Translations under genes and position numbers: made by a program
In this document: piece by piece, positions 7,438-18,422 of the stretch
Layout: each line of letters starts with the position of its first letter
How positions within the stretch are numbered: position 1 is the first letter of the stretch
DNA from: a virus
Direction: 5' to 3' (one strand)
Virus record (IMG/VR): IMGVR_UViG_3300025141_000026
DNA: 64,000 nucleotides
Notes under the pieces: generated by a model
Databases searched by the model: none
What the model saw: the letters and a program-made list of their open reading frames with translations, nothing else
Told to the model about the DNA's origin: nothing

Positions 7438-10400
7438 CTATAATATTGGTTCATTGCCAATATCATTTATTTTATTTTCAACTTCTTTGTCCGTTTGTCC
7501 CCTGTCTATATCCCCTGTATTGAGAAAGACTTTCTTCACATCCGCTGGTGAAAAGGATTGGTCTTTGGCTAAATCGGGATCCTTTTTCTTAGGTGGATCA
7601 TTTATTTCTGGTGCTGGATCGACAGTTATATCTGGTGGTGTTATGGGGACATTGCCTCCGATTTGTACGCCAGCATCGATCTTTGCTAATTCCACCAAAC
7701 TAAAGAAGTCATATGGCCAATTATAGCTATAAGTTGTCTCCTCCAATGCCCCATCAACAAATTTGTCCATGCCCAATGTTTTACTTATAGCATTATTATA
7801 ACTATATTTTGCTCTCTGTTTTACCTTGAAGATCATCCATCTGACCTCTTTTGTGATTGACTTTCCTAGCAATAACTCATTGTTTGTAAGAAAGTGAGTT
7901 ATCTTTGAAGTTTGTTTTTCGGCTTTTACAGATATCTTTGGCATAACTCCCTGCCATATATCAGCCAAGTCCTGCTTATCTAAAGTGTGGCTAAACTCAA
8001 ATATATACATTTGAAATGGGGTTAGATTTTCGTTATTGATAAAGTCAAGAGACGGCGGGAAGACGTACTTCTGCATTCTTTCTATTTGATCAATAATAGA
8101 GTGACCCGGAGTATAAACCGCAGGATCTAATGGATCTCTCTTGCCTAAGATGGCATCTACAACATGGCGACCTTTTGTTTTTGCAACGACTAAATCTTCA
8201 GCAGGAACTAATGGATAGAATATTTTTTTATCCCCATTCACAGTAAAAGGTATCGCCACAACTGCTTCAAATATTTCTTTCTCTCCAGTTATCTCCCCAA
8301 TACGTTTCGCCTCAGTATTGGGGAACAAAACTTGCCTCAATGAACCGATCTGTGCTTCTGTAGTTGGTGATAAACCCAAGGCAGAAAGAGGGTTGCCCCC
8401 ATTGAATGGAGGGGCAAACGTAGGAAATGGATCTGTTAAGTCGTAATATATACCCTCTCCAGAAGAAGGAAATTCTCCGTATCCTCTCCACATCCCACGA
8501 GTATGAAGGTTTGCGTCTGCAAATGTTGTTCCAGTGTTCCCACTGAAATTCATGACAGGACACTCGAACTTGGGAGATATCACCCATTTTGATTCTTCCT
8601 GTCCAACTTGTGTGGTGGTTGGTCTTCCAAGAGCGTCAAATGCAAAGACGGGCTTTCCAACCACATTGAAAAGATTCATTGATGAATTTATTTGCATTTG
8701 GTATCTTGTTGCAAGAGAGAACTGATCTGTATTGGAGCCGCCTTCTCCCGGTCCATTTTTGGTGGGATCAAGAATTCCGAATGTCAAGTAATTGCTCTGA
8801 TCTAATTCATAATTATTGAAAAATGTTGATCCACTAGTTGCTATATAGCCAACAATCTCACTAAGAGTAAACGAAGAATTCTTTCCGCCCACATCTAATG
8901 ATTCGTTTGGTGCTAATTCTGTAAATTCATGTGGAGAAAATTTACATCTAACTGTAGACTTGCCATAAAAATATGGTGGAGTATAGGCAGCATTGGCTGG
9001 GTCACAACGAAAAGCATTGTTCATTCCAAAGGTCAGTGTCGATCTGTCAGCCATTCTTTGTAAGAGCGGTGGACCATAATGAATTCCTCTTGCTGATGCG
9101 GTGTTTCCTTGTGAACTAGTATTATTTAACCTGTGTGGTCCTTCATACATAACCATATCTGGTGTTTTATAAAGTTCGATATCCATATAATAATTGACAC
9201 CAGATAGAAAACTAGCCATTGAGGTTGATTCTATGTTTGAAAACTTGCCCTCTTCCAAAAAGAAATTTGGCACTTCAGCTAAAAAGTTGTTCATTGCTAA
9301 TGTGTAGTTGTCTTTGTTGTTGCCGTTCCAAACAGCATAAGCTCCACTAATTCGTGGGGCACCAGTGTACAATCTGGCGTCTAGGTAGTTTATTCTTTCG
9401 GGCTTGTCACTAACTGTGGTCAATTTGTTTTTTGATGCTAAATAATTTTGAGGATATAATAACGCTTCAAATGGTATTCTAAATGAGCCAGTATCCGTTT
9501 GGACAACATCTCCGCCCCCGGCACCACCAAAGTTATCGATATTTGTAGATCCAGTAAATGTCATCCAGTCAACAGCAATACCTGATTTGACTGTGTTATA
9601 CAGAATACCCGGATTGAAAAAAGGTTGCATAAACGCACTCACTCTTTCAGTGTTTGGATTAGAAGAGAAAATTTCACTTCCTTCTAGAAACGGAGCAAAT
9701 GATTGTGACATTAGGCTTCCTAGCTGAACTGTCCTATTCATTGGATAAAAGCCGTTGTATGGCAATAATTTCTTAATTCCACTGCACTTTACGGTTATCT
9801 TGGTTTGCTTGGCGACCCCATCATGTTGTTCTCGAATAACGTCAAAGTGTTTGATAAAATCACTGTGTGTGTAGATATCAAAGAAATCGGCATCAAATGG
9901 GTCGGTTTCAGATTCCGCAGATTGGGATAAGTGCCCACCCTCAAGTGTCAAGTATTTATTATTTTTAGACGTAGCACCAAAGAAAGTACCCTTATCTAGA
10001 TAGTAGTCCATGTGTTGAGATATTCTAAATTCTGGGAGGACCGTGTGGTCTTGCCCAAACAACCTAATATCAGATGCATATTCTTCATAAGAATCGAACC
10101 ATGGCTTCTTACCTGACAGTCTTCCTGTGTCCCAATTTGGAATAAACTCTGAGTAGAATTCTCCATCAGACCCTCCTTCTGCCGCAGATGACGACATGAA
10201 AGCGTGATACTCGTAAGTGAAGGAGGCTGTTGGGGACAATAATGCGGTTCTATCTATTTGGTATTGCAACATTGATGTGCTAAAGCTATCTACAGAAAGT
10301 GCACCATGATTCGTCCCTGTGAGTTGTGAGTAATCAATTGTTGCCCCTGTCATTCTATCTCCAACATCAAGGGGGTGAACACTAAAAGCAGTGGCGAATT

Positions 10401-16907: not shown

Positions 16908-18422
16908 CTATTCTACCCTAAATTTAAAAGTTTCTGAATGCTCGTGAGTTGTTCCATTTTCATAAGACAAGATGTTTATGTTATACGCATAGCCCGTTTC
17001 TAGGCACTCCATGTCTAAATCAAAATAACTTCCACTAGCATCATAAGACAGTTTTGTATATTTTATGCTCCCCGTCCCATAACCAATGGCTTCGACTCCA
17101 TCTAGTTGCCTAGTAATCTTGTAGTATGCATCTCTCAAGATTGTAGGCTCGATTGCAGTTGTTGCCTTAGTGTAAATAGTTGGATTCCACGTTTGTGATC
17201 TAGTGAATATTCTGAAGCGAGCCTTTTCAGCTTTTGAATAGTAAGGTTTCAAATTTGTTATGTTTATCACATAACCATCAGCTAAATTGTTACTATGTTG
17301 AGTCAAGTCTTTAGGGCTGAACCCTGACCCTGTGAAATACTCAACGCTACCGCTGTGCCATACATCGTAAAGATATTCTGTCGCGGCAATTGATGATGTA
17401 AAGGCAAAAGAGCAAGAATAGATTCCTGTTGAAACAAAATTGCCAGTGATATTTGTATCTCCAACAGAAGCAACCCCGCCGCCTATGGAAAGACCAATCT
17501 TATCCCCCTCGGGTCCAGTAGTTCCAGAATATATGCTAACACGTATCTTGTTCTCTCCTACATCCGGTATATTTTTTGGTGCTCCCTTGATGTAATTATA
17601 TAAATATAGATTGTTCAAATTGTCAGATGCTGGCGCTAGAGAACTGCTTAGATAAAAATCTGCCCTGTCATCTGTTTTGAAATCTTCCCACCGCGCTTCA
17701 ATTACAGGTCTCTTGAAATAATATTCTGTCCCTCTTGCATAAAACTTCTTGTTGTAGTAGGACCTTTTCTCGCTTCCGTCTTCTTGACTAGATGTTAGAA
17801 ACACTCCAAATCCAAAATTTCCGGGCAATTTTGATGGCGCTGCTCCAGCTATCCAATCTTCAACTGTATTTGACACATCTAACTCCAGATCTTCAATTCC
17901 TGTTTTGAAAGTTTGCTTATAAGTATAAACCTCGTTGCTGGTGCCAATTGTGCCTGTCATATAGGAGCCGCCTTCTGCGCTCCAGCTTGAGGTGCCAGCA
18001 CTAGCGCTCAAGGCTACTATCCAGTTTGAATACCCAGTATCTATATAAGAATCAGCATCCAACCCATAACCTTCTTGCCACGATTGGGACACTGGGTTCA
18101 CTACTAATGTATATTCTTTAGGAACTGTGAATGGGTGTCGAGCATTGAACATTCTGAGATAGAAATTTACACTCCCAGAGGCGGGAATTGTTCCATCATC
18201 TCTTGCTGCACTAATCTCATCGACTGGAAATTGTATAAGAATTCTTGATTTTTCTACAGTTGTACCAACACCTGCTGAACCACTTCCTTGACCATAAATA
18301 GAAAAAACTTGCAAAGAGTCTGCTAGTCCCTGATTTGACCCCGTTGCTCGCAGTTGCAAACCTAGCTTAAAAGCATTAGTTATTGTATTGTCTAAGCTGG
18401 CAGTAAATCTGTGTATAGGCAT
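16908..18422 (-). CDS. Baseplate-associated structural protein (DNRLRE/beta-sandwich-like, 504 aa)
   Basis: Motifs SRILIQF, YLRMFNA, V.PVSQSWQEG.G, LDVSNTVEDW, RPVIEARW; lies between the gp6-like gene and the giant LamG gene. Confidence 0.5.
   Translation of the reverse strand: MPIHRFTASLDNTITNAFKLGLQLRATGSNQGLADSLQVFSIYGQGSGSAGVGTTVEKSRILIQFPVDEISAARDDGTIPASGSVNFYLRMFNARHPFTVPKEYTLVVNPVSQSWQEGYGLDADSYIDTGYSNWIVALSASAGTSSWSAEGGSYMTGTIGTSNEVYTYKQTFKTGIEDLELDVSNTVEDWIAGAAPSKLPGNFGFGVFLTSSQEDGSEKRSYYNKKFYARGTEYYFKRPVIEARWEDFKTDDRADFYLSSSLAPASDNLNNLYLYNYIKGAPKNIPDVGENKIRVSIYSGTTGPEGDKIGLSIGGGVASVGDTNITGNFVSTGIYSCSFAFTSSIAATEYLYDVWHSGSVEYFTGSGFSPKDLTQHSNNLADGYVINITNLKPYYSKAEKARFRIFTRSQTWNPTIYTKATTAIEPTILRDAYYKITRQLDGVEAIGYGTGSIKYTKLSYDASGSYFDLDMECLETGYAYNINILSYENGTTHEHSETFKFRVE

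Follow-up and report, generated by a model that had tools for sequence, protein, structure and literature searches.

The tripeptide motif [ST]-G-S (Ser or Thr, Gly, Ser) is strongly over-represented in certain virion proteins encoded by IMG/VR record IMGVR_UViG_3300025141_000026, a 64,000-nucleotide stretch of viral DNA (the window), and in related phages this excess accompanies a large island of sugar-biosynthesis genes. In the window the excess is found in a giant 3155-amino acid (aa) protein with a LamG domain and in the 504-aa protein encoded beside it. The original prediction, made from the letters of the window alone, took the motif for an acceptor sequon by which phage glycosyltransferases (GTs) modify surface-exposed structural proteins. 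The sequences themselves show the statistics of the motif, its specificity, its distribution among proteins, the turnover of its sites and its linkage to the island. On this basis we lean slightly towards reading [ST]-[G>A>S]-S as a signal for O-glycosylation of virion proteins, at which soluble enzymes of the phage would attach sugars made by the island. With a single exception, the long open reading frames (ORFs) of the window are on the minus strand. By its sequence the window fits the T4-like late region of an uncultured marine phage, consistent with the gp23, sheath and tube homologues found in its relatives.

Enrichment and specificity of the motif

The counts made by eye in the original prediction (15, 7, 5, 3, 0 and 0, with the same seven pentapeptides in the 504-aa protein) proved exact. 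The giant protein holds 15 [ST]GS where its composition leads one to expect 3.2, and the 504-aa protein 7 where 1.0 is expected; pooled, the two give 22 vs 4.2 (Poisson p about 8e-10). The expected excess over shuffled controls was seen with every type of shuffle. Local shuffles over 20, 40 or 100 residues gave expectations of 3.5-3.8 for the giant and 1.0-1.3 for the 504-aa protein (p<=0.001), and dipeptide-preserving shuffles gave 6.2 (p=0.001) and 3.4 (p=0.007), respectively. Variants of the form [ST][AS]S, which had also been called frequent, reached 17 vs 6.0 and 6 vs 1.8. The tail fibre (56032-58881) had been counted among the enriched proteins and did not bear this out, as its 5 SGS against 2.0 expected are not significant (p about 0.05-0.18) and at least 2 of the 5 sites, at residues 158 and 251, fall within identical copies of a single internal repeat. 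The fibre repeats are near-identical (…SGSSTLAVGGVATFG…) and stand 93 residues apart (window 57844-58410). Elsewhere in the window the 2649-aa protein has 3 [ST]GS vs 2.2 expected, the 1295-aa protein 0 vs 1.2 and the gp6-like protein 0 vs 0.4. A 370-aa protein has 2 vs 0.15, and its homologue in G001, a CheckV-complete relative of 200,760 bp, has 2 vs 0.24, a result that is weak on its own. TGS is the most over-represented tripeptide of the giant protein (10 vs 1.55, p=5e-6), with a Bonferroni-corrected p of only about 0.04 when the window is taken alone.

The codons used at the motif vary freely from site to site, with Ser written as both TCN and AGY and all four Gly codons in use, and because of this a DNA-level motif is ruled out and the signal is placed at the protein level. 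Local Ser/Gly/Thr-rich composition is ruled out by the local and dipeptide-preserving shuffles and by the large asymmetry between TGS and SGT.

Over 4500 homologues of the 504-aa protein are present in public data. Its family carries 780 [ST]GS against 110 expected in 120 close homologues, and 955 against 161 in 148 representatives of 50%-identity clusters, and the homologues of the giant protein from 74 related viral loci carry 879 against 192. No homologue of either protein was found in cultured phages, and no PDB sequence match was found. In an unbiased scan of all 8000 tripeptides TGS and SGS took ranks 1 and 2 in both families. TGS stood at 5-8x vs about 1x for SGT, so that the motif is directional. 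TAS, SAS, SSS and TSS came next at 2-3.5x; SGT, TGT, [ST]GN, [ST]GG, AGS, NGS, GGS and [ST][N/D/T]S lay at 0.3-1.8x, and DGS was not enriched. Written out, the pattern is [ST]-[G>A>S]-S with a fixed direction and with Ser rather than Thr at position 3, and the identity and direction of the enriched tripeptides argue against both a generic turn and a Ser/Gly/Thr-rich composition. At the flanks I, A, V and L are favoured at -1 and A and V at +1, with charged residues and Pro disfavoured.

The sites behave differently in the two families. About 13 alignment columns of the 504-aa family bear the motif, four of them nearly invariant and the others alternating with TAS, TSS, SGT or SGG. Each of 38 homologues of the giant protein keeps 9-32 motifs, and these are spread over 217 alignment columns, of which 115 are used by a single sequence and that of SGS1033 alone is invariant. 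The giant protein keeps its motif density while the sites turn over, and this makes the pattern unlike a conserved domain motif. A repeated domain with a conserved motif is ruled out by the same 217 columns, together with the lack of internal sequence repeats in the giant protein and of any similarity between it and the 504-aa protein.

Virion proteins that carry or avoid the motif

All 121 ORFs of at least 150 aa in G001 were scanned. Most enriched were the giant protein with 20 motifs vs 4.7 expected, the homologue of the 504-aa protein with 9 vs 1.7, a neck/adaptor-like protein of 423 aa, the major capsid protein gp23 with 6 vs 1.2 and the tail sheath with 6 vs 1.8, and all remaining ORFs together gave 32 vs 33 expected. 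Across about 70 related loci the capsid family carries 240 motifs vs 56.5 (4.25x), the tail sheath family 260 vs 63.7 (4.1x), and fibre-like, spike-like and 1842-aa proteins stand at 3.1-4.4x. The tail tube (3 vs 5.8, 0.5x) and a hub-like protein (0 vs 4.5) are depleted in the same loci, as is the gp6-like wedge family in 74 related loci (7 vs 28.7, 0.24x). Two unannotated proteins, one of 781 aa and one of 413 aa adjoining the capsid gene, stand at 0.25x and 0.6x. The claim that the motif marks surface-exposed virion proteins is supported in part: in relatives the motif marks the capsid insertion domain described below, the sheath and fibre- and spike-like proteins, with the tube, hub-like and gp6-like proteins depleted, and the fibre of the window and two tail-module proteins that we return to when weighing the readings do not fit.

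Within the capsid family all motif columns fall in an expanded region that aligns with the segment of T4 gp23 between the N-terminal arm and the core, a segment that we take to be an insertion domain on the capsid exterior; the HK97-like capsid core has no motif columns. In G001 the capsid motifs lie at residues 144-253 of 634, and all six [ST]GS of the sheath are N-terminal to its conserved C-terminal domains (Pfam, residues 902-1192). The G001 capsid protein (69470-71374), which is of the gp23 type and 634 aa long, has a region of ~270 residues where the Pfam Gp23 profile has ~60 positions, and its sheath (61880-65485) has 1201 aa vs 659 aa in T4-like phage PP01; both proteins have large extra domains, and the motifs sit there. 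A generic property of gp23 or gp18 folds is ruled out, as no excess was seen in PP01 and cyanophage Syn9, neither of which has a PF00534 gene, or in a clade of relatives without the sugar island.

The motifs of the 504-aa protein were mapped onto an AlphaFold model (predicted local distance difference test, pLDDT, 80.5; predicted template-modelling score, pTM, 0.76), as had been proposed. The model is a string of beta-sandwich domains whose fold matches are sandwiches of the Ig/FN3/CBM type. All seven motifs are placed either in loops that immediately precede or follow a strand or in hairpin turns of two residues, in agreement with the loop positions that had been foreseen. The few family members with 0-1 motifs have KNGN, DKGN, KDGC, GAEE, SQDD or TDS at the same aligned turns, and in motif-poor sequences the aligned positions 2 and 3 are hydrophobic in 8% and 6% vs 34% overall. 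Since polar and charged residues occupy the same turns in motif-poor homologues, the motif turns are predicted to be exposed, and the motif is, on this model, not needed to build them.

The sugar island and its glycosyltransferases

In the window a 16-kb glycan island lies next to two adjoining GT4-type genes, GT4-A and GT4-B (Table 1). The distance from GT4-A to the 504-aa gene was used as a proxy for the island. Island-bearing genomes (n=36; 19-40 kb) have a median motif ratio of 5.0 (pooled 829 vs 167), and island-less genomes (n=9; 13-16.6 kb) a median of 1.3 (pooled 50 vs 31.9), so that the predicted co-occurrence of enrichment and glycan genes in related phages was recovered. In the motif-poor contigs the 504-aa and giant homologues both stand at about 1x, the whole island is missing, and GT4-B directly adjoins the homologue of 32563-33252. 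The other virion proteins follow: island-less G029, which has full coverage, is near expectation, with 2 vs 0.5 for the capsid, 2 vs 1.0 for the sheath and 6 vs 6.4 for its fibre-like proteins, and island-less G030 shows the same for the capsid and has fibre-like proteins at 0 vs 3.8 and a sheath ORF cut by the contig end. No other tripeptide takes over as a replacement sequon in this clade. When the distant cultured phage immuto, which has a long branch, serves as outgroup, the island-less clade falls inside the island-bearing lineages and beside that of the window itself, and therefore it looks, with moderate support from these sequences, as though the island was lost and the motif then decayed. 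The early branches of the clade have intermediate ratios of 2.0-2.7. A 484-kb uncultured phage (LR756508.1) was rejected as an outgroup because it was unclean.

Homologues of GT4-A occur in ten cultured-phage records only. Flavobacterium phage vB_FspM_immuto_2-6A (NC_055915.1) has a PD-(D/E)XK nuclease gene, GT4-A (30% identity to that of the window) and a second GT, followed by a 9-kb glycan island. When its proteome was scanned, a tail spike (26 vs 5.9), gp056 (12 vs 1.26) and gp102 (8 vs 1.5) came out on top, with other tail and baseplate-region proteins also in the top list. Among all tripeptides of the immuto structural proteins SGS ranks 1 and TGS 3, and TAS and SAS are in the top ten. 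The order nuclease, GT4-A, GT4-B is found at 49715-53040 in the window, at 48008-51927 in NC_055915.1 and at 81375-86302 in PP395634.1, the record of Microcystis phage Mel-JY01, where guaB is inserted. The Mel-JY01 GT4-A homologue (83441-84932) is annotated as two adjacent coding sequences and matches in two pieces, through either a frameshift or a sequencing error.

Matches to the GT4 pair were found in 20/23 related records, the 3 exceptions being fragments. GT4-A has an orthologue in 18/18 island-bearing genomes examined and also in the island-less clade, at 51-55% identity. Its closest solved relatives are BshA-type enzymes and chlorovirus B736L (PDB 3oy2, E=1.9e-8), and TarM was also matched. 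In five relatives (G064, G039, G062, G044 and G050) the GT4-A match contains one in-frame stop (TGA, TAA or TAG), which may reflect a match that runs past the gene boundary. The best solved-structure match of GT4-B is no better than E=0.014. In many relatives GT4-B forms a fusion of about 670-710 aa with a GT2 or MptE-like domain, and an orthologue of about 385-403 aa and about 40% identity is kept in the island-less clade.

The GT4-A/GT4-B pair is the only glycosyltransferase common to all motif-rich genomes. Among 18 islands only this pair and sugar dehydratases of the short-chain dehydrogenase/reductase (SDR) type are near-universal, and other content differs between genomes. The G001 island (140722-155880) encodes a GDP-mannose dehydratase, a fucose-synthase-like SDR, a GT10 fucosyltransferase, a PfkB kinase, an RpiB-cytidylyltransferase fusion and a GT4-B fused to GT2, and is almost wholly unlike that of the window. 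Judging from gene content, close relatives seem to swap one sugar chemistry for another and yet keep the same motif. CMP-sugar synthetases occur in 7/23 and Maf-like proteins in 6/23 relatives, both are absent from motif-rich G001, and the Maf-like ORF of the window scores 27.0 bits vs a Pfam cut-off of 34.6. Both gene types are too patchy to be a general reader of the motif and were ruled out for that role. The GT4 pair is likewise ruled out as sufficient for the motif, since it survives in the motif-poor clade. Among the island proteins scanned there was no match to flippase, polymerase or exporter families, and three of these proteins matched nothing in Pfam. A NeuB/KdsA-type synthase was not seen beside the two CTP_transf_3 proteins of the window, and no protein kinase or acyltransferase family was seen in its island.

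The genes and motif sites of the window are collected in Table 1. A further tail-module protein of at least 798 aa belongs to the baseplate-region gene set. Between a 310-aa protein and the gp6-like gene lies a large protein (20712-28661) that ranges from ~1850 to 2650 aa among homologues; it holds a fixed place, yet is 20-22% identical or unalignable between clades, and has no motif excess. The T4 late-promoter consensus TATAAATA occurs 13 times in the window vs 5.6 expected, mostly within genes and on either strand, and since the copies are mostly intragenic they are uninformative on co-regulation of the motif proteins by late promoters. The extracytoplasmic function (ECF)-type motif that was looked for alongside it is absent from the window.

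Table 1. Genes and [ST]GS sites of the window; sites are given as residue:nucleotides.
Feature	Position	Strand	Remarks
1295-aa tail-module protein	2423..6310	-	motif-free
370-aa protein	6314..7426	-	after giant gene; 2 [ST]GS motifs
370-aa protein, sites	TGS53:7262-7270, SGS151:6968-6976	-
LamG-domain giant protein, 3155 aa	7438..16905	-	Pfam Laminin_G_3 at residues 201-398; after baseplate wedge genes
Giant protein, sites	SGS240:16180-16188, TGS301:15997-16005, TGS334:15898-15906, TGS466:15502-15510	-
Giant protein, sites	TGS583:15151-15159, SGS921:14137-14145, TGS1009:13873-13881, SGS1033:13801-13809	-
Giant protein, sites	SGS1307:12979-12987, TGS1368:12796-12804, TGS1428:12616-12624, TGS1765:11605-11613	-
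Giant protein, sites	TGS2451:9547-9555, TGS2472:9484-9492, SGS2691:8827-8835	-
504-aa protein, string of beta-sandwich domains	16908..18422	-	directly after gp6-like wedge gene
504-aa protein, sites	TGS27:18336-18344, SGS47:18276-18284, SGS82:18171-18179, SGS357:17346-17354	-
504-aa protein, sites	TGS364:17325-17333, TGS450:17067-17075, SGS463:17028-17036	-
gp6-like baseplate wedge protein	18424..20250	-	PHROG baseplate wedge match; motif-free internal control
Variable glycan (sugar) island, 16 kb	33996..49718	-	Pfam matches: HpcH aldolase, two FkbM and one TylF methyltransferase, HAD-nucleotidyltransferase, two CMP-sugar synthetases (CTP_transf_3), class III and DegT aminotransferases, GDP-mannose dehydratase-like SDR
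GT29-like protein	43745-45670		in island; Pfam
Maf/MptE-like protein	48182-48877		in island; Pfam
GT4-B, second degenerate GT4-like protein, 427 aa	49715..50998	-	Pfam Glycos_transf_1, 20.9 bits, under cut-off
GT4-A, core GT4 glycosyltransferase, 435 aa	50988..52295	-	Pfam Glycos_transf_1, 55.9 bits
PD-(D/E)XK nuclease gene	52264-53040		directly before GT4-A
Tail fibre, 949 aa, C-terminal Peptidase_S74 chaperone domain	56032..58881	-	Pfam and PHROG matches

Competing readings and known glycosylation systems

From these observations we infer the attachment of a sugar, the residue that would carry it and the enzyme that would read the motif. In the mechanism we propose, soluble phage-encoded glycosyltransferases would act in the cytoplasm, before or during assembly, on [ST]-[G>A>S]-S in loops at the strand ends of virion proteins. 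The variable island would supply the nucleotide sugars for the glycan, which in this phage may be of the CMP-ulosonic-acid and GDP-deoxyhexose types, with methylation, and in relatives may include fucose- or heptose-type sugars. Selection would keep dense acceptor loops in the capsid insertion domain, the outer domains of the sheath, the fibre- and spike-like proteins, the 504-aa protein and the giant LamG protein, and would remove the motif from the tube, hub-like and gp6-like wedge proteins; once the island was lost, the motif would decay. Put more broadly, the motif may be a portable [ST]-G-S sequon by which widespread marine T4-like phages and their immuto-like distant relatives coat capsid, sheath and fibre-like proteins with lineage-specific, phage-made glycans, its density being selected through gain in exposed loops, purging from tube, hub-like and wedge proteins and decay after island loss. 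To this fuller statement we give about an even chance.

Several observations weigh against a glycosylation signal. The island-less genomes form one clade on the gp6-like tree (Shimodaira-Hasegawa-like approximate likelihood ratio test, SH-aLRT, 94-95), and therefore the association of motif and island within the group counts as a single event. GT4-A and GT4-B persist in that motif-poor clade, and no glycosyltransferase of the island itself is common to all motif-rich genomes. Mel-JY01, which has the homologous, split GT4-A, shows a partial excess only, at 13 vs 2.5 in one structural protein and 4 vs 0.95 in the sheath. Two tail-module proteins, of 1295 aa and 798+ aa, are motif-free in both the window and G001 (0 vs 1.1 for the 1295-aa homologue), and together with the fibre they do not fit a simple picture in which all surface proteins are marked. 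The GT genes also adjoin a nuclease gene, which keeps a DNA-related role of the GT4 pair open and makes DNA or host glycans alternative targets. The acceptor sequon of the original prediction thus gains from the shuffles, the loop positions, the distribution among proteins and the co-occurrence with the island, and loses from the fact that this co-occurrence amounts to a single event plus one distant phage and that the GT4 pair is present where the motif is poor.

The strongest rival, which we consider rather unlikely, is that the motif is an unmodified, lineage-specific style of loop, made for example of uncharged, flexible turns that resist proteases or adhesion; its link to the island would then stem from shared ancestry or ecology, and the island would modify host envelope glycans or DNA. 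The position of the motifs at strand ends and hairpin turns agrees with this, as does the Gly of several sites, G464 among them, which is invariant in motif-poor homologues too. The losses of island and motif fall on the same branch, the GT4 pair that the motif-poor clade keeps always adjoins the PD-(D/E)XK nuclease, and phage glycosyltransferases are commonly assigned to modification of DNA or the host surface (PMC12619734, PMC12801897). A style of loop does not, however, predict the strict direction and identity of the tripeptides, with TGS at 5-8x and SGT at ~1x, Ser only at position 3 and NGS and DGS not enriched. Nor would it lead one to expect fewer motifs than chance in the tube, hub-like and wedge proteins, or the same tripeptides with the same gene module in the very distant immuto, and motif-poor relatives make the same turns from ordinary D, N, G and K residues.

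It is also conceivable, though we hold it improbable, that the motif is recognized by something other than a glycosyltransferase, through phosphorylation, acylation, phosphoglycosyl or phospho-alcohol transfer, or the docking of a decoration protein or ligand. Ser or Thr equally at position 1 and Ser only at position 3 would suit any enzyme that acts on hydroxyls, and the islands also encode methyltransferases, kinases and nucleotidyltransferases; against this, only sugar-nucleotide and glycosyltransferase genes track the motif, the window's island lacks kinase and acyltransferase matches as noted above, and no candidate decoration protein co-varies with it. The pattern was chosen after the sequence had been viewed, and the corrected p for TGS in the window is modest, so that a meaningless pattern picked by eye might be suspected. 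This is effectively refuted by the same tripeptides coming out on top across hundreds of homologues, the full proteome of G001 and an unrelated cultured phage.

If the glycosylation reading is true, a three-residue sequon would make phage glycan coats readable from metagenome sequence, would account for the large 'LPS-like' sugar islands, devoid of export genes, that marine phages carry and would offer a compact tag for cytoplasmic O-glycosylation in glyco-engineering. A glycan coat would bear on adsorption, particle stickiness, grazing and recognition by antibodies or defence systems in abundant ocean viruses, and the idea can be tested directly on the cultured Flavobacterium phage vB_FspM_immuto. 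To our knowledge, only a few mycobacteriophages have been shown to glycosylate their virions with enzymes of their own, and we know of no acceptor rule.

GtfA/GtfB carry out cytoplasmic O-GlcNAc glycosylation of serine-rich repeat adhesins in Gram-positives, with the acceptor Ser in an S-small-S context; they are neighbouring proteins of the GT-B/GT4 type, the signature being strong in one and degenerate in the other, and extending transferases follow them. GT4-A and GT4-B likewise adjoin, one strong and one degenerate, with further transferases after them, and they too would act in the cytoplasm on an S-small-S context. The acceptors of GtfA/GtfB are long low-complexity repeats, unlike the isolated tripeptides in folded beta-rich domains described here, and the solved-structure search did not place the GT4 pair in the GtfA/GtfB family, giving BshA-type enzymes, B736L and TarM. 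Chlorovirus PBCV-1 encodes its own cytoplasmic glycosyltransferases, and its glycan is N-linked to Asn of one capsid protein in a non-canonical acceptor context. The machinery would be virus-supplied in both cases, and B736L is among the closest solved relatives of GT4-A, but the candidate acceptor here is Ser/Thr on many proteins of a tailed phage.

In mycobacteriophages, virions are O-glycosylated by phage-encoded glycosyltransferases (Freeman et al. 2023, as cited in PMC12619734); the glycans there are placed at the C-termini of capsid and tail-tube subunits, and no dispersed sequon is defined. The likeness lies in phage GT genes beside structural genes, abundant outer virion targets and a presumed glycan shield. 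The differences are a motif scattered in loops of many proteins, a tube depleted to 0.5x, a large sugar-nucleotide island and a system known here from sequence alone; a C-terminal placement was not seen, the motifs being dispersed and those of the capsid internal. Maf is a soluble cytoplasmic nonulosonic-acid transferase that modifies surface-exposed flagellin Ser/Thr before assembly, and for the Aeromonas enzyme apolar residues are reported to flank the acceptors (PMC11339370; bioRxiv 10.1101/2020.06.03.131540). The apolar flanks of the motif are similar, and the genes of the window include those for a Maf-like protein, a GT29-like protein and two CMP-sugar synthetases; a strict sequon is not known for Maf, however, and the Maf-like ORF here is below the Pfam cut-off and is not present wherever the motif is. 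The system described here thus resembles those of mycobacteriophages, Maf, GtfA/GtfB and chloroviruses in how it would work, yet by the features that define each it belongs to none of them.

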